Part shown: positions 3,761 through 15,949 of the stretch, one piece after another
How the letters are laid out: the number at the start of each line of letters is the position of its first letter
How positions within the stretch are numbered: position 1 is the first letter of the stretch
Assembly: GCA_029261955.1 (NCBI GenBank)
Contig: JAJDAI010000831.1
Location: forward strand, 1 to 29,110
Source of the DNA: Deltaproteobacteria bacterium
GTDB taxonomy: Bacteria > Myxococcota_A > UBA796 > UBA9615
Length of the DNA: 29,110 bases
Direction: 5' to 3'
Notes under the pieces: model-generated
Seen by the model: the letters and a program-made list of their open reading frames with translations, nothing else
Database searches by the model: none
What the model was told of the DNA's origin: nothing
Position numbers and translations under genes: made by a program

Positions 3761-4471
3761 TCAGGGGGCCGGCGGCCCGAAGCGGAAGTCCGCCGACAGG
3801 CGGCAGTCCCGGGTCCTCGTCGGCAGCCCCTGGTGCAGGGTGTAGACCCCGAAGAGCACGACGTCCCCCGGTTCCAGATCGGCGGTCGCCCAGGAGCCCT
3901 CGGGCACCGGATCCACCCCCTCCTCCGAGCGACGAAGCCCCGAGTGCGGCAGCAGCCCGGCGCGGTGGGATCGGGGCAGGATGGCCAGCGGCCCGCGCTC
4001 CAGGGGGCAGCGCTCCAGCGGCATCCAGGCGGCGACGAGCGGGCTGTCCCCGTCGAAGTAGTGGCGGTCCTGGTGGGGCCGGGTTCGGGCGCCGGTTCCG
4101 CGCACCCGCACGATGTCGCCGCGTCCCATCGTCGGCTCGCCGCCGAGCAGCGCCCGCACGACCGCCTGGAGCGCCGGGTGCCGCCGCAGCGCGTCCATCG
4201 GGGGGCTCGGGTAGACCACGCGCTGGAGCTGGATGTAGTCGGGGTCGTCGTAGTCGGGCGTGGGGCGGGTGAGCCCCTGCTCGTCCAGGCAGCCCAGCTC
4301 GGTGAGGGTCGCACGCACCAGGCTGCAGAGCGCCGCCGTCCTCGCCGGCTGGATGAGGCCCGGCAGGAAGAGGTAGCCGTCCGAGTCGTAGCGCGCCGCG
4401 AGCCGAGCCGGCGCGCCGAGCAGCGCCGTGCTGTCGACGAAGGGGTGGAAGCCGGGCGAGCTCAGGCCCAT
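3761..4471 (-). CDS. Phytanoyl-CoA dioxygenase (PhyH) family Fe(II)/2-oxoglutarate dioxygenase 1
   Basis: DGYLFLPGLI, HQD facial-triad motif, AWMPL, ILPRSH, PGDVVLF..YTLH, RLSADFRF; start overlaps the methyltransferase 3' end by 10 bp. Confidence 0.88.
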   Translation of the reverse strand: MGLSSPGFHPFVDSTALLGAPARLAARYDSDGYLFLPGLIQPARTAALCSLVRATLTELGCLDEQGLTRPTPDYDDPDYIQLQRVVYPSPPMDALRRHPALQAVVRALLGGEPTMGRGDIVRVRGTGARTRPHQDRHYFDGDSPLVAAWMPLERCPLERGPLAILPRSHRAGLLPHSGLRRSEEGVDPVPEGSWATADLEPGDVVLFGVYTLHQGLPTRTRDCRLSADFRFGPPAP

Positions 4472-5226
4472 GCCGTCCACCCCCTCCACCGCTCCGTGCG
4501 CCAGGAGCCCGGGGCGCAGGATGCCGCGACCTCAGCGAGCAGGGCGCGCCGGCGGGGCTCGTCCAGATCGGGGCGCATGGCCTCGGCGACCGGGGGCAGC
4601 GCCAGCCAGGCCGTGTAGGACTCGAAGCTCCAGGTCGTCTGCACGCTCCAGGGCTCGGGCCGCAGACCCACCCCCCGCAGCTGCTCCTCCAAGCCGGCGG
4701 CGTCGGGCAGCGGATCCCCCGCTTGCGGAGCGGTCGGACGACCGGCGACGAAGCGCTGCGCAGGCTCGACGAGGTGGGGGTCCGGCCCCCCGCCCGGCGC
4801 GTCCGGCTCCCCCAGGTAGGCAGCGGGAATGGCGAAGACGAGCGCCCCGCCCTCGGCGAGGCGGGCTCGAAGCTGGTCCAGCGCCTGCTCCAGCGGACCC
4901 AAGAGCCACAGCGATGCGCCGCACACGATCCGGTCGAAGCGTGCTTCGGGCAGGGACGTCAGCCAGGACACCCGGGGGTCGTCCAGCTCGGCAGCCTGCC
5001 GCATGGCGGCGGCGGGCTCCACGCAGCACAGCTCCGCTTCAGCGGGCAGCCGGGCCAGCAAGGCCCGCGCCGTGCCGCCGGTGCCCGCGCCGACGTCGAG
5101 CACGCGGCGGCTGCCCGCCAGGTCGGCGTGCTCCGCCAGCGCCGCGTTCACGGCGTGGTAGCGGTCGAAGCGGGCCCCGAAGTCCTGCCAGGCCTGCACC
5201 GTCTCGGCTCGATCCCAGGCGCTCAC
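4462..5226 (-). CDS. Class I SAM-dependent methyltransferase
   Basis: VLDVGAGTGG motif I, CVEPAAAMR, FDRIVC, LAEGGALVF; GTG start overlaps the radical SAM 2 stop (GTGA, 5223-5226). Confidence 0.88.
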   Translation of the reverse strand: MSAWDRAETVQAWQDFGARFDRYHAVNAALAEHADLAGSRRVLDVGAGTGGTARALLARLPAEAELCCVEPAAAMRQAAELDDPRVSWLTSLPEARFDRIVCGASLWLLGPLEQALDQLRARLAEGGALVFAIPAAYLGEPDAPGGGPDPHLVEPAQRFVAGRPTAPQAGDPLPDAAGLEEQLRGVGLRPEPWSVQTTWSFESYTAWLALPPVAEAMRPDLDEPRRRALLAEVAASCAPGSWRTERWRGWTAWA

Positions 5227-6635
5227 GCGGTCGCTGCCGGGGCGGAGGAGGGCTCCGGCGCGAAGAGCGGATCGCGCAGCAGACCCATGCGGGCGAGGTT
5301 GTGCTCCGCCTTGAAGACGAGGCAGCGCCCGATGGCCGCGCGCGTCTCCTCGTCGTAGCCAAAGAAGTCCAGGCCGAGGTTCGCGTCGTCGACGTAGTGG
5401 CGACGAAAGGCCTCGGGCTCGGCGATCGGCGGCGCCTCGACGTAGTGGCTGTAGGCCTCGTCCAGCCACCAGTCGGTGAAGCCGAAGCGCTCGTGGTGCT
5501 CCTCGTAGAGCGGCGTGCCCGGGAAGGGCACCGCGACACCGAGGGTGCTGAAGGTGTCCACCAGCGGCGCGATCCGCTGCATGAAGGCCAAGGTGTTCGC
5601 CAGCTCGGCCGGGCCCTCCTGCGGAAAGCCGAGCATGAAGTTCGCGGCCGTCTTCAGCCCCGCGTCCCGCGCCATGCGCAGCGCCGCCTCGACCTGGGCC
5701 GTGCTCACGCCCTTCTTGATGAGGCGGAGGATCCGGTCGTCGCCGCTCTCCACCCCGAAGTTCACGTGCACCAGCCCCGCCCGCTTCATCGTCGCCAGCA
5801 GCTCGGGGCTCACCATGGAGGCGCGGGTGATCGCGCTCCAGCGGGGGCGGAACTCCAGCCGTTCAATCCGCGCGCAGAGCGCCTCAAGCCGCTTGCGGTG
5901 GGCCGTGAGCGCGTCGTCCCAGAAGGGGAAGAAGCGCGTGCCGAAGGCGTCGTGGTGGGCCTGGAGCTCGTCGGCGACGTTGTCGTCGGAGCGGTAGCGA
6001 AAGCCCCGGCCGGTCACGTAGTTCGCACAGAAGGTGCACTTCGCCGGGCAGCCACGGCTCGTCAGCAGCCCGCCGGGCACCATCTGCCGGCCGCTCGGCT
6101 CGTACCAGGCGGGGTCGAAGAGGTGCTGGGCACGCTGGGGGAAGGCCAGGGCATCCAGGTCCGCGATGAAGCCGGCCGGCGCGGTGTGCACGGGGCCCGA
6201 GGGGGACGGGAGCACCAGCCCGGGCACCTCGCCCAGGTCGCGCCCGGTGCGGAGCGCCTCGACGAGCTGGACGAGGCTGTGCTCCGCTTCGCCGACGACG
6301 GCCACGTCGAAGCCCTCCCGCAGCGTCTCCTCGGGCCGGACCGTGGTGTGGGCGCCGCCAGCCACCAGCAGGGGCCCCGTGCCGACGAGCCGCCGGACGA
6401 GGCGGTAGGCGTGCCACACCCAGCGCGTGAAGAGCCCCAGCCCGACGACCTGCGGCTGGAAGCGCTCGATGCGCGCGAGGAGCTGGTCCTCGTCTTCATC
6501 GAAGTGGCGGGCGGCGGCGTCGATGACCTCGACCTCGCAACCCGCAGCCAGCAGCGCGGCGGCGACGTACTGCTGGCCCAGCAAGGGCGCCCCAAGCCGT
6601 TCGGGCGACGGGGGATTCAGCAGCAGGACGCGCAT
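5223..6635 (-). CDS. Cobalamin-binding (class B-like) radical SAM protein 2
   Basis: MRVLLLNPP, VAGGAHTT, VAVVGEAE; TSRGCPAKCTFC; PFWDDAL, NFGVESG, NFMLGFPQE, VPFPGTPLY. TTG at 6644 is an alternative start. Confidence 0.92.
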   Translation of the reverse strand: MRVLLLNPPSPERLGAPLLGQQYVAAALLAAGCEVEVIDAAARHFDEDEDQLLARIERFQPQVVGLGLFTRWVWHAYRLVRRLVGTGPLLVAGGAHTTVRPEETLREGFDVAVVGEAEHSLVQLVEALRTGRDLGEVPGLVLPSPSGPVHTAPAGFIADLDALAFPQRAQHLFDPAWYEPSGRQMVPGGLLTSRGCPAKCTFCANYVTGRGFRYRSDDNVADELQAHHDAFGTRFFPFWDDALTAHRKRLEALCARIERLEFRPRWSAITRASMVSPELLATMKRAGLVHVNFGVESGDDRILRLIKKGVSTAQVEAALRMARDAGLKTAANFMLGFPQEGPAELANTLAFMQRIAPLVDTFSTLGVAVPFPGTPLYEEHHERFGFTDWWLDEAYSHYVEAPPIAEPEAFRRHYVDDANLGLDFFGYDEETRAAIGRCLVFKAEHNLARMGLLRDPLFAPEPSSAPAATA

Positions 6636-6667
6636 CGCAGCCAAGGGCTCTCCGGCGGCTAGGGGGT

Positions 6668-6688
6668 CGTCACCGGGGTCCGGTGACG
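6668..6688 (-). terminator. Perfect inverted repeat just downstream of the Tat-protein stop (terminator or mRNA-stabilising stem)
   Basis: CGTCACCGG (6668-6676) / CCGGTGACG (6680-6688), 3-nt loop, 5 nt after the stop at 6694; no U-tract. Confidence 0.4.
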
Positions 6689-6693
6689 CACCA

Positions 6694-7527
6694 CTAGGGC
6701 AGCTCGGTGGGCTCCTGCGGGAGCGACTCGACGGCGCCGCCGCCGGGGATCCGCGTGATGCGCAGGAGGTGGCCGGGGGTCGAGATGTTGTCGCCAGCCA
6801 CGACGGGCCCGACGGGCACGTAGGGGGGCGCGAAGGTGGGCACGGGCCCGCCGCCGAGGATGCCCTCGACCATGGCGTCAGCGCTCCAGTCCTGGACCCT
6901 CTGGCCGACCCGCCAGGCGATGGCGTGCACGAGCGCGACGACCGGGTGTCCGCCCTTGATGGGCCCCTTGTCGAGCACGGACGAGGCCAGGGAGCCGGTC
7001 AGGCCGCTGGTGATCTTCGCGTAGCTGGCCGAGGACTCCGGCTGGAGCAGCACGGCGTCGCCTTCGGTGACGGGGGCCTCGGGCGCGGGCACGGCCGCGA
7101 AGTCGGGAAAGGCGTCCGAGGGGGGCAGGCTCCAGTCTGCAGCCCAGCCTTCCCAGGCTTCGGCCGCGGCCACCGCCAGCAGCGAGGCGCCGTCCTCTTC
7201 GACCCCGTCCGCGATCAGGCCGTCCTCGACGAGCAGCGCGACGTCCACCGGGCTGCTGAGGGAGCCGCCTTCGAGCGTGAGCGAGTTGATCTCCCCGTGG
7301 CCGTACTCGGCCTCGGAGAGCCAGGCGTTCCAGGCACCCGTGATCACGTCGGCCATGGCCTCGGCGTCCGCATCGAGCGCGGGGTTGCCGCGGTTCGGAG
7401 CTCCGTGGCCGTTGCCGCCTCGGGCTGCCGCGCCAGGCCGCGCGATGGCGGTGGCGGCGACGCCAGCGGAGAGGCCGAGGAGCACGTCGCGGCGGTTGGG
7501 GATTCGGTTGGGGTCGTCTTGGCTCAT
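6694..7527 (-). CDS. Hypothetical protein with twin-arginine (Tat) signal peptide
   Basis: NRRDVLLGLSAGVAATAIARPGAAA: RR, hydrophobic core, AxA site; GAGG 6 nt before ATG 7527 (alternative ATG 7533); acidic mature region with WxxW helices and C-terminal GGGPVPTFAPPYVPVGPVVAG. Confidence 0.8.
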   Translation of the reverse strand: MSQDDPNRIPNRRDVLLGLSAGVAATAIARPGAAARGGNGHGAPNRGNPALDADAEAMADVITGAWNAWLSEAEYGHGEINSLTLEGGSLSSPVDVALLVEDGLIADGVEEDGASLLAVAAAEAWEGWAADWSLPPSDAFPDFAAVPAPEAPVTEGDAVLLQPESSASYAKITSGLTGSLASSVLDKGPIKGGHPVVALVHAIAWRVGQRVQDWSADAMVEGILGGGPVPTFAPPYVPVGPVVAGDNISTPGHLLRITRIPGGGAVESLPQEPTELP

Positions 7528-7554
7528 GGTCATCCTCTTCTTGAGGATCGGACC

Positions 7555-8322
7555 TTAGACGACGACGGGGAAGCCTGTCCCCTTCAATCGACCGCCCTCG
7601 TCCAGGGGGAAGTGGACCCGCGAGGCGGGCGCGATCCGCTCGACATCGATGACGCACTCGGCGTCGAAGAGGTGAGCGACGACCGTCCTGCGGGCGCTCC
7701 CGCTTCGGTTCGGGGCGGAGCGGTGCCAGGTCCGCGGCGTGTGCACGCTGAGGTCCCCGGGCTGCAGGACCAGGGCCCCGCGCGAGGCATCCACCTGCGC
7801 GCGCTGCGCCGGGGCGAGGCCGGCGAGGCCGTCCTGGAGCATCGGCTCGCCGTGCAAGGAGTCGACCGGCTCGGGCCAGCGGTGGCTGCCGTCCAGCACC
7901 TCGAGGCCGCCTCGATCCAGGTCCTCGACCCCCAGGGCCAGGCGGACGGAGAGCACCCGGTCCGGCGCCAGGTAGCCCGTGTAGGAGGCGTCGCGATGCC
8001 AGGGCACCTCGCCCCCCATCCCCGCGGGCTTGCCGATGAGCGCGTCCTGCAGCAGGCGCACCTTGGGGGCCTCGAGCAGGGCCGAGGCGATGCGACCCAG
8101 CCGCCCGTCGAGCAGCCAGCGGCGCAGGTCGGCGTGGAGCCGAAAGGCCCCGGGGCGCTGGACGACAGGGGGCAAGCCGGTGGTGCCGATGCAGGCATCG
8201 AAGGCCGCACAGAGCCGGTCGACTTCGGGCTCTGGGACGACCTCTCGGAGCACCGCCCAGCCGTGCTCCAGCAGGTGGACCCGTGCCGCTGTGAGGGCCT
8301 CGTCGCTCGGTGCAGGGCTCAC
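7555..8322 (-). CDS. Phytanoyl-CoA dioxygenase (PhyH) family Fe(II)/2-oxoglutarate dioxygenase 2
   Basis: HGWAVLREVV, VPWHRD, LEVLDGSH, QPGDLSVH..RTWHRSAPNRS..ARR; GTG start overlaps the radical SAM 3 stop (GTGA, 8319-8322). Confidence 0.88.
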   Translation of the reverse strand: MSPAPSDEALTAARVHLLEHGWAVLREVVPEPEVDRLCAAFDACIGTTGLPPVVQRPGAFRLHADLRRWLLDGRLGRIASALLEAPKVRLLQDALIGKPAGMGGEVPWHRDASYTGYLAPDRVLSVRLALGVEDLDRGGLEVLDGSHRWPEPVDSLHGEPMLQDGLAGLAPAQRAQVDASRGALVLQPGDLSVHTPRTWHRSAPNRSGSARRTVVAHLFDAECVIDVERIAPASRVHFPLDEGGRLKGTGFPVVV

Positions 8323-9674
8323 GCCGGCTCGTCCGAGCCGTAGAACGCGGCGCTGAAGCGGCGCACCTCGGGCGACCAGCGCGCCGTCCAGCGGGCGTTC
8401 ACCCCCCGCTGCCACCGGTTGAAGCCGGCCAGCTCGGCCTCGCGCCCCACCCAGGCCTCGTGCGGGAGCATGGCCGTGGCCAGCTGGTGGTGGTCGCCGA
8501 CCTCGCGCCACCAGGTCGGGTGGTCGACGCGGGTGCCGAAGCGGCGGGCGTACTCGGGCAGGCGCCGGTAGGACTCGGTGCCCGGCAGCACGAAGAAGGT
8601 CTGAGCCGACAGCCAGCCGCTCGCCGGGCCGCCGCGCGGCATGAGGTCCTGCACGTAGGCGCGCGTCTCGGCCGCGGTCTCGGGCGTCTCGCCGGGGTAG
8701 TTGAAGAGCAGGTAGACGCCGTGGTGCAGGTCCTCTGCATCCGCGGCACGCAGCATCTCGGCGGACTTGCGCAGGTAGCGCGCGGGATCCGGGGCCTTCT
8801 CCATGAGGCCGGCCATGGTCTCGCTGCCGGTGTCGAGGCCGAAGTCGAGCTTGAAGTTGCAGCGCCGAAAGCGCGCCAGCAGCGCCGGCGTCATCAGGTC
8901 GGCCCTCGTCTCGGCCCAATACTGCACCGGCAAGCCCAGCTCCTCGAGGCCGGCGAGCAGCTCCTCCGTCCAGCTGCGGTGGGCCCCGAAGAGGGGGTCG
9001 GCGAAGGCGATGGAGCGCGGGCTGCGCGCCCGGTAGACGGTCTCGATGATCCGGAGCGCGTCCGCCACCGAGTAGCGCGAGGTCCTGCTGCCTCGCAGTG
9101 GCTCGATGCAGAAGCGGCAGCGGTAGGGGCAGCCGCGGCTCAGGGCGATCCAGACCGCGCCGCCGTGATCGCTGCGCCCGTAGTTGGGCCAGTCGATGTG
9201 GTCGTGTCCGCCCAGGGCCAGGGGGTTGCCGGCCAGGACGATCGTGCGAGGGGGGCGACGCGGCGGATCTGCGCACAGCGAGCGCAGGGGGTGCTCGCCG
9301 TCGCCGGTGACGACCCAGTCCGCCAGCCCCTCGAAGTCCGAGGGCATGCCGGTGGCGTGGTGCCCGCCCACCACGATGGGCAGCTCCGGCCGCACGCGGC
9401 GCAGGTGTTCGATGATCGCGACCGTGCCGAGGTAGTGCAGGCTCGTCCAGCAGGAGATGCCGACCAGCCGGGTGTCGTCCTGGAGCGCCTCGTCGAGCCG
9501 GGAGAGGGCCTCATCCAGGTCGCCGCCGCGGTCCAGCTCCAGCTGCGCCACACCGCAGAGGTCGCTGACGAAGCCCGCCAGGCTGTCCAGGTGCGGCTTG
9601 CCCGCCTCGCGGTTGGACCACCAGCCGTGGCCGTGCAGCACGGGCGGGGCGATGAGCAGGAGCTGGAATGTCAC
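8319..9674 (-). CDS. Cobalamin-binding (class B-like) radical SAM protein 3
   Basis: LLIAPP, VGISCWTS, IVVGGHHAT, VVTGDGE; LSRGCPYRCRFC; FADPLF, LFNYPGET, FVLPGT. Confidence 0.9.
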   Translation of the reverse strand: MTFQLLLIAPPVLHGHGWWSNREAGKPHLDSLAGFVSDLCGVAQLELDRGGDLDEALSRLDEALQDDTRLVGISCWTSLHYLGTVAIIEHLRRVRPELPIVVGGHHATGMPSDFEGLADWVVTGDGEHPLRSLCADPPRRPPRTIVLAGNPLALGGHDHIDWPNYGRSDHGGAVWIALSRGCPYRCRFCIEPLRGSRTSRYSVADALRIIETVYRARSPRSIAFADPLFGAHRSWTEELLAGLEELGLPVQYWAETRADLMTPALLARFRRCNFKLDFGLDTGSETMAGLMEKAPDPARYLRKSAEMLRAADAEDLHHGVYLLFNYPGETPETAAETRAYVQDLMPRGGPASGWLSAQTFFVLPGTESYRRLPEYARRFGTRVDHPTWWREVGDHHQLATAMLPHEAWVGREAELAGFNRWQRGVNARWTARWSPEVRRFSAAFYGSDEPA

Positions 9675-9683
9675 ACGGGGAGC

Positions 9684-10856
9684 CTACCCGCCCGCCCCGG
9701 GGGCCGGGTCGGAACGGGGGGGTTGGGCGGTCCCGTCAGGACTCGGGGGGCTGTCCTCCATCGGAGGCGAAACCCTGACCCCCATCCGCTGCAAATCCCC
9801 CAGGAGCCGCGCGGGCTCCACGGCCTGCGCCATCGTGCTCACGCCCAGGGGCCGGCTGCCATCCGCCCACTGCAGCAACCAGGCGGCCACGGGGATCGCG
9901 GTGAGGTCGTAGCCGTCTTCGTGGCCCAGCTGGAGGACCAGCTGCTCTCGCTCGCTCTGCACCTCCAGCCGCAGCAGCGTGCCGAAAGGCGGGCGCGACC
10001 CCCTCCGCAGACTCCAGCACAGCAGGCGGGCCAGGGGCCCTTCGAGCAGCCCGGGCAGCAGCTTCATCCCCACCAGGACCAGCGGGATGACCAGGTAGTC
10101 GGTGATGGGGTCGAAGCCGCCGACGTAGAAGCCGCAGGAGGTCAGCTGGGGGTACATCTGCGGCAGCGGCCGGAGCTCCTCGAGGAACATCGGCACACAC
10201 ACCTGCTCCCCCCAGGGCGGCCCGAAGTCGAAGCGCGGGCTGCCCCGACCGGTCCAGGACATCGATCGCCACGACCCCTCGACCAGGTGCTTCGAGTCGT
10301 AGTCGGCGAACTCCCGGACCATCTCGCGCGCCGTCTCGGACACGATCTCCAGCCCGCGCCAGTCGATCTGGATGACGCTGCTCACCTGCGCCCGGAAGGC
10401 GCCCGGCACGCGCTCGGCGCCGTAGCGGATCAGCGCCGCGGGAACACCCGGGTGGAAGCCCGCGTCGGTGATCGCGCAGAGATCCGCCGCCTCGAAGAGG
10501 TCCGAGGCAGCGAACAAGCGGGCGACCTTCTCCGCGGAGAGCTGGATGTCCAGGTAGTCGGTCCCGGTGGCCAGGCAGGCCTCGATCGCCACGTCCACAA
10601 ACTCCGAGGTGCTGGAGGCGGCGACCAGCAAGTCGACATCCCGGAGCGCTGCCTCCATCGATGCACGCGAGGAGGCGTCGACGGACAGGGGCGTGCAGCG
10701 CTCCCCGAGCTGCCCAGCCAGCGCCTCCAAGGGCGCCGAGCGGCGACCGGCGGCCACGACCCGAGCCTCAGGGACTTCGGCCAGGAGCAGTCGAGCGATG
10801 CGGGACCCCGTGTTTCCCGAGGCACCGAGGATCAAGACGGTCGGCGATCGGCTCAT
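9684..10856 (-). CDS. Saccharopine dehydrogenase-like NAD(P)-binding oxidoreductase
   Basis: VLILGASGNTG Rossmann motif, VVAAGRR, GTDYLDI, DAGFHPGV; GGAGG 5 nt before ATG 10856. Confidence 0.85.
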   Translation of the reverse strand: MSRSPTVLILGASGNTGSRIARLLLAEVPEARVVAAGRRSAPLEALAGQLGERCTPLSVDASSRASMEAALRDVDLLVAASSTSEFVDVAIEACLATGTDYLDIQLSAEKVARLFAASDLFEAADLCAITDAGFHPGVPAALIRYGAERVPGAFRAQVSSVIQIDWRGLEIVSETAREMVREFADYDSKHLVEGSWRSMSWTGRGSPRFDFGPPWGEQVCVPMFLEELRPLPQMYPQLTSCGFYVGGFDPITDYLVIPLVLVGMKLLPGLLEGPLARLLCWSLRRGSRPPFGTLLRLEVQSEREQLVLQLGHEDGYDLTAIPVAAWLLQWADGSRPLGVSTMAQAVEPARLLGDLQRMGVRVSPPMEDSPPSPDGTAQPPRSDPAPGAGG

Positions 10857-10909: not shown

Positions 10910-12451
10910 TCACCCCCTCGCGAGCGCCGCCCCCACGTGCAGCCCCATCGCGTAGATCGACACCTGGGGCGGCACGCCGATCGAGCTCGGGAAGAGCGAG
11001 CCATCGGCCACCCACAGCCCCTGGAGGTGGTGGTGCTTGCCATCCGAGCCGACCGGGGACTTCGCCGGATCGTCGCCCATCGGCACCGAGCCCATGGGGT
11101 GCACCGCCGTGAGGTCGGGGGTGTCGGCCGCGATCTCCGCCTGCAGCGCGTCCAGGTCGTCGTCGGCCCGAAGGACACGCAGCCCACCCGCGGGCACGAA
11201 GACCGACTCCGCGCCGGCCGCGAAGAGCAGCTTCGCGCAGGCGACGACCCCGAAGGCCACCTCGCGCCGATCCGCCTCGATGGGCTCGTAGTCGATGCGC
11301 AGCCCGAGGTCCCCGCGCGGGCGAACCCGCCCCATCGTCAGGTCGTGGACCATGGGCGTGAAGACAGCCAGGCGCTCGTAGGCGGACATGAGCCGGCGGT
11401 GCTCCGCGCCGAGCCCCGGCACCATCGTCGCGGTGCCCACGGGGTGCGCGAAGGCCGGCACGATCCAGGTGCGCGTGCCGATGGGCGGTTCGGCCCCCTC
11501 CTCGGCGTAGGCCCGCTCGAAGTCGAGGAACTCGGTGCACTCGACGGTCTGGGGGATGCCTTCCCAGGCGCGCACGGGCTCCGCGAACTCCCCCGCCGCG
11601 ACGGGCGCCGGGTGGATGCGCAGGGTTCGGCCGGTCTTGCCGCTCGGGTCGGGCACGTCGGAGCGAAGCAGGATCGCCGGCGTGCCCGTGGCCGAGGCGG
11701 AGACGCAGACCCTCGATGCAACGACCGAGAACTCACCGACCGGCCGCCGGTGCACGGGATCCAGCACGACCCCCTCGACCCCCGTCACCGCACCGCCGGC
11801 GTGCAGCACCCGCACCGCCTGGCAGCGGCTCAGCACCTGGCCCTTGGCGGCGATCAGGCGGGGGAGCAGCACCTTGTTGGCGTTGTTCTTCGCGTCGTAG
11901 GCGCAGCCGAGCAGGCAGAAGCCGCTGCCCAGGCAGCCGGTGCGGTTGTGCTTCAGCCCGCCGGCCTTCCAGCCCAGCTTCGCGGCCCCGGAAGCCAGCA
12001 GCTGGTTGTGCCGATTCCGCCGCGCGACCTCGACCTCGGACACCCCGAGCAGCGACTCCGCCGCCCGGTAGAGCTGCTCCCAGCGCGAAGGCGGCAGCTT
12101 CTCCATCCCGTGCAGCCGCGCCCACTCCCGGCGGATGGGCTCGGGGATGCGCGCGCAGAGGTTGATGTTGTGCACGGTGGACCCGCCCACCGCGCGTCCC
12201 TGGTGGATGCGCACCCGCCGGTCCGCGCTGGTCTGCCCGCCGTTCGCGGTCAACAGCTCGGGGAGCATCTGCTCCTCGCGCTGGGTCATGGCCGAGGGAG
12301 GTACAAACGCGCCGGACTCCAGGACCACGACGCTCAGCCCCGCCTCCGCGGCCGTGGTCGCTGCCGCCATGCCGCCGGCGCCCGAACCGATCACGCAGAC
12401 GTCGGCCTCCAGCTTCAGCGGCAACGAGAGAGTCGAGGCGTCGAAGATCAC
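10910..12451 (-). CDS. GMC-family FAD oxidoreductase
   Basis: VIGSGAGG, VLESG, QGRAVGGSTVHN, CLGSGFCLLGC..DAK, HPMG, VADGSLFPSS; GTG start overlaps the upstream stop (GTGA, 12448-12451); no signal peptide. Confidence 0.92.
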   Translation of the reverse strand: MIFDASTLSLPLKLEADVCVIGSGAGGMAAATTAAEAGLSVVVLESGAFVPPSAMTQREEQMLPELLTANGGQTSADRRVRIHQGRAVGGSTVHNINLCARIPEPIRREWARLHGMEKLPPSRWEQLYRAAESLLGVSEVEVARRNRHNQLLASGAAKLGWKAGGLKHNRTGCLGSGFCLLGCAYDAKNNANKVLLPRLIAAKGQVLSRCQAVRVLHAGGAVTGVEGVVLDPVHRRPVGEFSVVASRVCVSASATGTPAILLRSDVPDPSGKTGRTLRIHPAPVAAGEFAEPVRAWEGIPQTVECTEFLDFERAYAEEGAEPPIGTRTWIVPAFAHPVGTATMVPGLGAEHRRLMSAYERLAVFTPMVHDLTMGRVRPRGDLGLRIDYEPIEADRREVAFGVVACAKLLFAAGAESVFVPAGGLRVLRADDDLDALQAEIAADTPDLTAVHPMGSVPMGDDPAKSPVGSDGKHHHLQGLWVADGSLFPSSIGVPPQVSIYAMGLHVGAALARG

Positions 12452-14064
12452 CGCAGCGCCCCCCTCGGGTCCTGGCCAACCGGCGCCACGAGGGCGGCGT
12501 AGCGCCCCGGCGCCCCGGTCCCGCCCGGCGGCACCCACGGCCCGCGGTAGCCCAGCTCGCCCCAGGTCCGCGCGTCCTGGTACCAACCCAAGAGGCAGAG
12601 GTCCCGGACCCCGCGCGCCGCGTCCGCCATCAGCCCGCCGAACCACTCCAGGCGCTCGAGGAAGCGCCGACGCCCCGCAGGATCCAGCTGCGTGAGCCGC
12701 GAGAGGTGACCGTCCAGCGCGGTGCCCTGCTCGAGCAGCTCGAACATGCCGTGGACCTCGAGCAGCATCGGCGCGGGCATGCCGGCCAGGTAGCGGTCCA
12801 CGGCGGAGGCGAGCTCCTGCCCCGAGGGCCCATCGGCCGGCAAGGGCCCGGGCTCGTCGGGCACCACCGCCTCGGCCGCCGCGGCGATCGCCAGGGCTTC
12901 GTGCCGAGTCAGGACGAGCCCCTCCCAGTCCTCGAAGCCCCCATAACCGACGAGGTGCCGGTAGCCCGCGATCCCCACCGCCAGCGCCGCGCCGCCCACC
13001 AGGACCCGGCGACGGGACCAGCCGCGCCCCGAATCCAGACGCCGCAGCAGCCTCGGGGGCAACCGACCGCGCCACCCCGGCTCCACAGGCAGCTCGCCGC
13101 GGTGCGAGGTCAGCCAGTACAGGACGCGCTTGCCCTGCCAGGTCGGGGCCTCGGCCCGCATCGCGGCGAGGGCCTTGCCGCCGTAGATGGGCTCAGCGCG
13201 CAGGCCGGCCGAGGCGAGCCAGGCCACCGCGCCCGCCGACTCGGGGCTGATGTGCCCGTAGCCTGCCCCCACAAAACCCCGCACCGCCTGGAGGTCCGGC
13301 ATCGGCAGATCCGAGGGGACGGGCAACCCGCTCGACCGGAGAAAGGCCAGGACCTGGTCCCGGTGGTGCCGGAGCGCGCCGTTCGTCACGAAGACCCGCT
13401 CGACTGTCGCCACGGCACGCACGGGGATCGGCCGGCCCGCGAGCGCCAGGCCCAGCGCCGTGCCGACCGCCGTGCCGCCGGTGCCCCAGGGCACGAAGAC
13501 GACGTCAGGCTCGGGGATCTCACCGGCCTCGATCTGCGCGGCCAGCTCCAGCCCGCCCGACAGGCTGCCCACGACGCCCTCCGGCACGGTGCCGCCGGGC
13601 GGGATGGCCGGGATCGGCCCGTCGCGCTTCCCGAACAGGACCCGCGTGCAGCGAAAGGCCAGCTCCAGCCGGCTCCCGCAGAACAGGACGTCGGTGGGGC
13701 CCGAGGCGATGCAGGCGAGGTTCTCCAGGACCGGCTCAGAGCTCGGCTCCCAGAAGCAGTGCGCCTCCAGCCTCCGCCCCAGGCGCGCGGCCGCGAGCGT
13801 CATGGCCACCAGGTGCCCTGAGCCGATGGCCCCCACCGAAGCCCAGGTCTGCGCGGAGACGAAGGGCTCCTGCGCGAGCAGGAAGTCGAGCTTGCGGACC
13901 TTGTTCCCACCCTGGAGCGGCCCGATCTGGTCGTCCCGTTTGACGCCGAACCAGGAGAAGCCGAGCTCCGCGGCCTGCTCCGGCAGCTCGGTCACGGGCG
14001 TGGGGGCTTCGATCCACCCCAGGCGGGGCAGCACATCGAGCGTCGATTGAGTCCAGGGGGGCAC
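12448..14064 (-). CDS. Fusion: PLP-dependent ACC deaminase/D-cysteine desulfhydrase-family domain + gluconate 2-dehydrogenase subunit 3-like domain
   Basis: N-terminal ~330 aa: PTPV, VKRDD, GGNKVRKL (PLP Lys55), GTGGT, EPIYGGKA. C-terminal: SRRRVLVGGAALAVGIAG, AAAEAVVP, VDRYL, FLERL, LCLLGWYQDARTW..LGY.GP. One uninterrupted frame. Confidence 0.8.
   Translation of the reverse strand: MPPWTQSTLDVLPRLGWIEAPTPVTELPEQAAELGFSWFGVKRDDQIGPLQGGNKVRKLDFLLAQEPFVSAQTWASVGAIGSGHLVAMTLAAARLGRRLEAHCFWEPSSEPVLENLACIASGPTDVLFCGSRLELAFRCTRVLFGKRDGPIPAIPPGGTVPEGVVGSLSGGLELAAQIEAGEIPEPDVVFVPWGTGGTAVGTALGLALAGRPIPVRAVATVERVFVTNGALRHHRDQVLAFLRSSGLPVPSDLPMPDLQAVRGFVGAGYGHISPESAGAVAWLASAGLRAEPIYGGKALAAMRAEAPTWQGKRVLYWLTSHRGELPVEPGWRGRLPPRLLRRLDSGRGWSRRRVLVGGAALAVGIAGYRHLVGYGGFEDWEGLVLTRHEALAIAAAAEAVVPDEPGPLPADGPSGQELASAVDRYLAGMPAPMLLEVHGMFELLEQGTALDGHLSRLTQLDPAGRRRFLERLEWFGGLMADAARGVRDLCLLGWYQDARTWGELGYRGPWVPPGGTGAPGRYAALVAPVGQDPRGALR

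Positions 14065-14191: not shown

Positions 14192-15949
<1,758 letters not shown>

Follow-up and report, generated by a model that had tools for sequence, protein, structure and literature searches.

A conserved fusion of a PLP-dependent enzyme to a dehydrogenase small subunit with a predicted internal twin-arginine signal

We analyzed a stretch of 29,110 nt, hereafter the window, from a metagenome-assembled genome (MAG) of a deltaproteobacterium (Myxococcota_A; contig JAJDAI010000831.1, assembly GCA_029261955.1). Its minus strand encodes a 538-aa protein, P0001, in which a pyridoxal 5'-phosphate (PLP)-dependent enzyme of the D-cysteine desulfhydrase/1-aminocyclopropane-1-carboxylate (ACC) deaminase type is followed, in a single frame, by a twin-arginine (RR) motif, a hydrophobic helix and a helical domain related to subunit 3 of gluconate 2-dehydrogenase. 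The next gene encodes a signal-less GMC flavoprotein (Table 1). We found that this architecture is conserved across a large family and that the features of a twin-arginine translocation (Tat) signal are preserved about 350 residues into the protein. The arrangement that we favor, as moderately probable, is an uncleaved internal Tat signal-anchor comparable to that of FecR, with the PLP domain in the cytoplasm and the C-terminal domain and the GMC flavoprotein in the periplasm.

Conservation of the buried twin-arginine signal

The original prediction had reported the motif W-S-R-R-R-V-L without naming a strand; we found it on the minus strand, as residues 349-355 of P0001, at the very coordinates given (13020-13000). 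Conservation of this region was counted on an alignment of 174 fused proteins spanning 28-93% identity. R352 is present in all 174 proteins, whereas position 351 is arginine in 150 and position 353 in 123, and lysine does not figure among the four commonest residues at any of positions 351-353. An uncharged stretch follows the arginines in 173 of the 174 proteins (median 16 aa, mean Kyte-Doolittle hydropathy of 2.0) and is itself followed by a basic residue (R in 157). The 15 residues that precede this stretch have a net charge of +3.95, as compared with +0.63 past it.

The same features were observed at the N-termini of 33/33 stand-alone relatives of the C-terminal domain (~190-220 aa), and the internal motif aligns column for column with the N-terminal S/T-R-R-x-F-L signals of these small subunits. 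Past the helix, fused and stand-alone proteins share a conserved R-x-x-G-Y motif; an AxA-type cleavage site is not conserved there in the alignment of the two groups. When the family profile was compared to the PDB, the only matches were Tat signals (AioB and hydrogenase small subunit), with non-significant E-values (0.6-0.7). In the AlphaFold2 (AF2) model of the full-length protein, the PLP domain and the C-terminal domain are both predicted with confidence, and the helix (residues 351-371) has a predicted local distance difference test (pLDDT) score below 50, indicating that it is not packed on either domain. The same genome encodes TatC. Because all the hallmarks of a Tat signal are unchanged in the fused proteins and the arginine is as constrained as the catalytic lysine of the PLP domain, the alignment argues that the buried motif is still in use as a Tat signal.

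The fusion in other genomes

A word-indexed search yielded 606 relatives of P0001; the matches listed (120 of the 606) all measure ~510-580 aa, with a coverage of 91-100%. A scan of one genome per species yielded 80 loci, and the PLP, small-subunit and GMC parts were all detectable in 44 of them. The PLP domain and the small subunit are encoded in one uninterrupted frame in 44/44 loci, including those of the finished genome of Minicystis rosea DSM 24000 (L021), a Bacteroidetes MAG (L024) and an Oligoflexia MAG (L019). The GTGA overlap that was predicted to couple the fusion gene to the GMC gene was indeed observed in the window, and the GMC gene begins with an A/G/T-TGA overlap in 35 of the 44 loci. 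The fusion had been called unusual: no description of this architecture was found in the literature searched, but it belongs to a large conserved family rather than being a one-off. A survey of Tat tail-anchored proteins mentions Gluconate_2-dh3 proteins just for their C-terminal helix. The parts and the transport principle are known; what is not is their combination, in which an internal Tat signal stands behind an enzyme and would bring a hitchhiker along.

We considered that a lost stop codon or a frameshift could have joined two adjacent genes in a low-coverage MAG. The source genome is fragmented (1279 contigs, 79.6% complete), and Logan contigs from two public runs (3-5x) break at 13061-13139, leaving a hole at the junction itself. 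Wherever these contigs cover the gene, however, they do not differ from the window, and the G+C content at third codon positions is 0.93 over the whole frame (window G+C = 71.6%). In addition, a 93%-identical protein of 538 aa from another assembly (P0003) presents the same junction sequence, and the uninterrupted frame recurs in 44 independent genomes, one of which is a finished isolate genome. These comparative data exclude an assembly or sequencing artefact, an explanation to which we give virtually no weight.

Split forms of the system were also observed. In Binatia (L069, as well as L068 and L077) the three units are separate genes in the order PLP, small subunit, GMC; there, the PLP protein is signal-less and the 195-aa small subunit begins with its own Tat signal. 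In another locus (L089) there is a 26-nt overlap of the PLP gene with the small-subunit gene, which lies in a different frame, and two loci (L087 and L088) contain pairs of small subunit and GMC genes without a PLP gene. The signal-less state of the PLP protein in the split forms and the retention of the gene order were counted in favor of the internal signal-anchor. On a marine metagenome contig (L090/L091, 1403-4328), a 533-aa gene resembling FAD amine oxidases lies upstream of the small subunit with a 4-bp overlap, and a GMC gene follows. Different cytoplasmic-looking enzymes may be coupled to such dehydrogenase pairs.

A tree of the small-subunit domains pointed to numerous transitions between the fused and the stand-alone state. 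P0156, at least, which is entered as a stand-alone protein, turned out to be the end of a fused gene whose scaffold is truncated (L092, 1-330), with the PLP frame running straight into it. Some short database entries therefore understate the frequency of the fusion, and because of this miscall we did not rely on the number of transitions.

The GMC flavoprotein and the small-subunit domain

The FAD-binding motif GxGxxG is found at residues 22-27 in all GMC partners. Three cysteines of the window's GMC flavoprotein (C173, C179 and C183) align residue for residue with C212, C218 and C222 of the alpha subunit of the FAD-dependent glucose dehydrogenase of Burkholderia cepacia (BcGDH), which ligate a 3Fe-4S cluster (PMC6719666). 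This cysteine motif was found in 25/25 partner genes and is invariant in an alignment (A3), and none of the 25 presents a signal peptide, which bears out the prediction that the GMC subunit lacks a signal of its own. A profile of 20 GMC orthologues matched the BcGDH alpha subunit (6a2u_B/8hdd_A) best among PDB entries (1.8e-20), followed by the large subunit of fructose dehydrogenase. The profile was needed to reach 6a2u_B, as phmmer with the single sequence returned just weak matches to choline and cholesterol oxidases.

Because it is signal-less and carries the aligned 3Fe-4S cysteines, the GMC flavoprotein would need to fold in the cytoplasm and be exported through Tat in order to reach the periplasm. 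Export of a folded FAD/3Fe-4S catalytic subunit on a signal-bearing partner is the established hitchhiker logic of this enzyme class (PMC6719666). The expectation that the small subunit exports the GMC subunit is consistent with the aligned cysteines, the absence of a signal on the GMC protein and the RR motif ahead of the C-terminal domain. The reaction should be the oxidation of an alcohol or a sugar, with electrons passing via the 3Fe-4S cluster to an acceptor outside the unit.

Clustering of the neighbors of 40 loci identified the GMC gene as the sole conserved neighbor of the fusion gene. Open reading frames (ORFs) with CxxCH motifs were observed near a few loci. Multihaem ORFs (5-13 CxxCH) are located at L053 (5286-6959), L011 (1-2511) and L035 (3-1613), that of L053 lying directly upstream of the fusion gene. 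They could represent lineage-specific electron acceptors.

The C-terminal domain had been described as similar to subunit 3 of gluconate 2-dehydrogenase (Gluconate_2-dh3, PF13618). Among the aligned members of the family, 15/38 match PF13618. Fused homologues sharing 45-47% identity (P0046, P0049 and P0122) and stand-alone relatives score 24-38 bits relative to a cut-off of 23.4, and the matches of the three fused homologues span nearly the whole profile. The AF2 model of the domain alone has a pLDDT of 88.5. In a VIA-align search of 48,161 chains, this model retrieved 6a2u_A, the gamma hitchhiker subunit of BcGDH, in first position as a weak match (Z 3.9, 88/114 residues aligned), and 8grj_C in third. 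The domain probably belongs to Gluconate_2-dh3, by transitivity through its homologues. The predicted identity is supported by the homologues and by the top-ranked, albeit weak, structural match, not by a direct Pfam match.

Three more small-subunit-like genes were detected on other contigs of the same genome (C596, C982 and C407; L084-L086). At least one opens with an ordinary SRRRFL Tat signal at its N-terminus, a GMC gene comes after one of them, and the match on C596 was reported with two in-frame TGA codons.

Membrane topology

"Class V" Tat substrates retain their N-terminal domain at the cis face and keep an internal signal uncleaved; a 2026 review gives FecR as the sole example (PMC13673990). 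Tat-dependent insertion of FecR through R79-R80 has been confirmed (PMC12036975), and the class V work on FecR is that of Passmore et al. (2020), as relayed by PMC13673990 and PMC12036975. By analogy, the fusion protein would be bitopic in the inner membrane, with a cytoplasmic N-terminus and a C-terminus outside. The PLP domain of 345 residues would fold and remain cytoplasmic, and S-R-R-R-V-L (residues 350-355) together with the uncharged helix of 15 aa would act as an internal, uncleaved twin-arginine signal-anchor. The C-terminal domain would bind the coupled GMC flavoprotein in the cytoplasm, after loading of FAD and of the 3Fe-4S cluster, and would take it along as a hitchhiker on passage through the Tat translocase. 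A single helix would then tether an FAD/3Fe-4S dehydrogenase that faces the periplasm to a PLP enzyme in the cytoplasm, and the protein would be a candidate class V substrate. We favor this arrangement because the fusion is conserved, the Tat hallmarks are intact, the GMC partner is signal-less with 3Fe-4S cysteines, and FecR provides a precedent. The original prediction had offered two possibilities, re-anchoring on the cytoplasmic face or an internal start; an internal signal-anchor behind a cytoplasmic domain is a third option, for which FecR is the experimental precedent.

Several observations weigh against this topology. The predicted orientation is drawn from sequence hallmarks and from analogy, and FecR, the sole characterized class V substrate, has a much smaller N-terminal domain (RR at 79-80) relative to the 345 aa found here, which are, moreover, probably oligomeric. 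Two enzymes on opposite sides of the membrane also give the fusion no obvious catalytic reason, and no gene for a cytochrome c or another acceptor is conserved beside the pair among the neighbors of 40 loci. Finally, two parts of the window's own protein fall below the detection limit of Pfam: in direct scans, the C-terminal domain did not match PF13618 even at E 10 and the RR region did not match TAT_signal. A Foldseek search with the model of the C-terminal domain returned nothing significant, and the VIA-align match is weak.

Alternatively, the whole protein could be cytoplasmic, with the large N-terminal domain blocking the Tat signal, which would serve as a mere linker or as a peripheral monotopic anchor, and with the PLP enzyme and the GMC flavoprotein acting together at the cytoplasmic face in one pathway. 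Fused proteins usually work in the same compartment, channeling offers a simple rationale, and the three units remain linked even as separate genes. The h-region is also short (median 16 aa) and Gly/Ala-rich, and no periplasmic electron acceptor is encoded nearby. However, a linker or an anchor would need neither an invariant arginine, kept without common lysine substitution at 28-93% identity, nor a conserved basic residue past the helix. The motif does not differ from the ordinary N-terminal Tat signals of the stand-alone relatives, the drop from strongly positive charge to near neutrality across the helix fits a membrane-spanning segment with its N-terminus inside, and AF2 leaves the helix unpacked on both domains. 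The channeling unit on the cytoplasmic face proposed by the original prediction thus fails to explain why the Tat hallmarks were kept (R352 in 174/174, an h-region of ~16 aa and a basic residue after it), and we regard an all-cytoplasmic arrangement as possible but unlikely.

Another reading concerns the role of the PLP domain, which could be a maturation or proofreading module, providing sulfide from cysteine for the 3Fe-4S cluster, or could mask the Tat signal until the flavoprotein cargo is loaded. The 3Fe-4S cluster of BcGDH sits at the interface of the small and catalytic subunits. We consider such a role rather improbable; if true, it would represent a private cofactor-assembly step coupled to Tat export.

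One product or two

A second alternative is that one ORF gives rise to two products, by internal initiation or by proteolysis in the linker, so that a free small subunit bearing the Tat signal exports the GMC flavoprotein and the PLP domain is separately soluble. Stand-alone small subunits with an n-region of similar length exist (P0124 and P0126), split forms occur naturally, and FecR is known to cleave itself, albeit on the other side of its anchor. The original prediction had proposed the in-frame GTG at 13086 (V327) as an internal start. This column is not conserved (H in 37, A in 20, S in 16 and V in 15 of the 174 fused proteins), it is threonine in the 93%-identical P0003, and no column between positions 320 and 350 is mostly Met or Val. 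We further searched for in-frame ATG, GTG or TTG codons accompanied by a motif similar to the Shine-Dalgarno (SD) sequence, at most 35 codons upstream of the RR motif, relative to control windows in the same genes. Such starts were detected in 3/40 loci, as compared with 17% of the control windows, and none was found in the 35 codons upstream of the RR motif in the window. The GTG start was rejected on these three grounds: its column is not conserved, it lacks an SD-like motif, and such starts are not enriched in the relatives. The linker is, in addition, strongly conserved as protein, and all 44 loci (44/44) maintain the frame, although two separate products of an operon would have no need of it. 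Two products from this ORF therefore appear improbable. The probability left over by the signal-anchor and its three rivals was assigned to arrangements that we have not thought of.

The PLP domain

The PLP domain matches PALP (PF00291) over residues 19-319 (E 1.9e-24; 87 bits relative to a gathering cut-off of 35), and its predicted similarity to ACC deaminase and D-cysteine desulfhydrase was borne out. Its nearest solved relatives are D-cysteine desulfhydrases and an ACC deaminase homologue (7ysk, 1e-22; 4d8t; 1j0a), and the AF2 model of the full-length protein presents a pLDDT above 90 over most of residues 1-340. The Schiff-base lysine in GGNKxRKL and the Gly-rich phosphate loop align with those of 7ysk and 1j0a. 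K55 is invariant in 34/34 diverse members, and the G194-G196-G197-T198 loop, Y294 and K297 are invariant or nearly so. Because these residues are kept, the domain looks catalytically competent.

In contrast, the domain scored below every NCBIfam subfamily or equivalog cut-off tried (DcyD, ACC deaminase, CuyA and XcbE), with 88-101 bits relative to 289-450. The best scores were obtained for XcbE (100.8 bits; cut-off 450) and TIGR01275 (87.8 bits; cut-off 289.4). As all equivalog cut-offs were missed widely, no named enzyme or substrate can be assigned. The domain is a divergent branch of the D-cysteine desulfhydrase/ACC deaminase enzymes, as judged from these profiles, and at the level of the class its reaction should be an alpha,beta-elimination or a deamination. 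Databases label the fused homologues simply as "D-cysteine desulfhydrase" or "PLP-dependent enzyme".

The subfamily presents a conserved C-terminal tail, in which W331 (169/174), P336 (173/174) and L339 (171/174) are nearly invariant among the fused proteins. Several Sorangium loci (L041, L042, L044, L048 and others; ~7001-8070) encode a stand-alone PLP protein of the same subfamily that ends right past this tail, in RLPAALSRRLGAHCGGGSR followed by the stop codon. The segment is thus not the n-region of the Tat signal, since the stand-alone PLP proteins of Sorangium and of L089 end with the same tail. No small subunit or GMC gene was found within 7 kb of the Sorangium genes. Because the Sorangium protein stands alone, the PLP enzyme can work without the dehydrogenase.

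Comparison with known systems

Like FecR, the fusion protein is predicted to present a folded N-terminal domain, then an internal RR motif with a single hydrophobic helix, and then a folded C-terminal part, as judged from the AF2 model and the alignment. The two proteins share no sequence relationship, and the N-terminal part is a PLP enzyme of 345 aa here and an anti-sigma domain of ~80 aa in FecR. In FecR the second polypeptide that travels along is a fragment of its own C-terminal domain, whereas the passenger of the fusion would be the product of the next gene, an FAD/3Fe-4S enzyme in its own right. FecR has been proven to depend on Tat; for the fusion this is a prediction.

The C-terminal half resembles the hitchhiker subunits of PF13618, such as the gamma subunit of BcGDH (6A2U), in combining an RR signal with a helical domain of ~170 aa directly upstream of a coupled, signal-less GMC gene, and the catalytic subunit resembles that of BcGDH in being of GMC type with a C-x5-C-x3-C 3Fe-4S site. 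Unlike in BcGDH gamma, a whole enzyme precedes the signal, making it internal, and an AxA-type site is not conserved. The disulfide between Cys213 of alpha and Cys152 of gamma in BcGDH (PMC6719666) has no counterpart in the family, since C173 is followed by L, I or V. In contrast to BcGDH and fructose dehydrogenase, the 40 loci show no conserved gene for a multihaem cytochrome c subunit next to the pair. LaoAB of Pseudomonas aeruginosa is a two-subunit, Tat-dependent GMC dehydrogenase without a cytochrome subunit, and LaoB lacks a PLP domain. By description alone, the pair is similar to LaoAB in joining a GMC protein to a small partner with a Tat signal, without a cytochrome c gene in the unit.

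The PLP domain shares with D-cysteine desulfhydrases and ACC deaminases (TIGR01275; 7YSK, 4D8T and 1J0A) the fold type II, the lysine in GGNKxRKL, the Gly-rich phosphate loop and a Y-x-G-K motif. It differs from them in that the Q-S-N-H motif reads G-S-G-H, in the extra conserved C-terminal tail and in scores far below the equivalog cut-offs. The family consensus Y-T-G-K is presumably closer to the desulfhydrases than to the Y-E-G-K of ACC deaminases.

Organization of the locus

The fusion gene starts with GTG and stops with TGA, and an N-terminal extension was ruled out because a stop codon lies 3 codons upstream of the start. It is the first gene of a minus-strand operon and is separated by 128 bp from a divergent gene (14192-15949, plus strand), whose 585-aa product contains eight putative copper-binding repeats of the MopE type (PF11617, E 5e-62). 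Downstream of the pair (3761-10856, minus strand) lie genes for a saccharopine-dehydrogenase-like NADP reductase and two B12-binding radical SAM proteins, with other genes between them. The likeliest start of the reductase gene is ATG 10856, after a GGAGGA motif, and an alternative GTG at 10913 would overlap the GMC stop. With tblastn, this gene was found beside no other fusion locus, and the reductase/radical SAM cluster adjoins the PLP-small subunit/GMC module in none of ~40 other loci. As neither tblastn nor the clustering of neighbors found such a gene beside other loci, the downstream radical SAM cluster lies outside the conserved module. A Sacchrp_dh_NADP gene was observed near one stand-alone small subunit/GMC pair (L087).

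Table 1. Features of the fusion gene and its GMC partner, in window coordinates
Feature	Position	Strand	Basis or remark
Fusion gene P0001, 538 aa	12448..14064	minus	PLP domain, internal Tat signal-anchor (predicted) and Gluconate_2-dh3-like domain; GTG start at 14064, TGA stop at 12450-12448
D-cysteine desulfhydrase/ACC deaminase-like PLP domain of fold type II, residues 1-345	13030..14064	minus	PALP match
PLP lysine K55, in GGNKVRKL	13902-13900	minus	Aligned with solved relatives
Conserved C-terminal tail of the PLP subfamily, residues 325-345, L-P-x4-W-R-x-R-L-P-x2-L-x-R-R-L	13030..13092	minus	Alignment of 174 proteins
In-frame GTG (V327), proposed internal start, rejected	13084..13086	minus	Column not conserved
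Twin-arginine motif W-S-R-R-R-V-L at residues 349-355, buried in the protein	13000..13020	minus	Conservation, alignment to stand-alone signals
h-region/predicted membrane helix V354-Y368, 15 aa uncharged, then basic R369-H370	12955..13005	minus	Charge and hydropathy, AF2
C-terminal helical domain, residues 371-538, divergent Gluconate_2-dh3/hitchhiker small subunit	12451..12954	minus	Homologues, AF2 and structure match
GTGA stop/start overlap of fusion and GMC genes	12448..12451	minus	GMC GTG at 12451 overlaps the TGA of P0001
GMC flavoprotein, 513 aa, signal-less, 3Fe-4S FAD-dehydrogenase-type catalytic subunit	10910..12451	minus	GMC_oxred_N and GMC_oxred_C
C173-x5-C179-x3-C183 (CLGSGFCLLGC), predicted 3Fe-4S ligands	11903..11935	minus	Aligned to BcGDH alpha

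Implications

If the topology is true, this family, which has hundreds of members, mainly in Myxococcota, would provide a second and much larger natural example, after FecR, of an internal Tat signal behind a folded cytoplasmic domain (PMC13673990). It would be the first such Tat substrate in which the cytoplasmic part is an enzyme and the exported part also carries a cofactor-loaded hitchhiker. It would further lend itself readily to testing the hairpin model for the insertion of Tat signals and the size of N-terminal extension that the translocase tolerates. The predicted topology would be of real interest to the Tat field. Signal-peptide predictors limited to N-termini will call the GMC partner cytoplasmic. 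Finally, the family ties a desulfhydrase-like PLP enzyme to a 3Fe-4S flavoprotein dehydrogenase and, since the link persists when the genes are split, the two enzymes may share a pathway.

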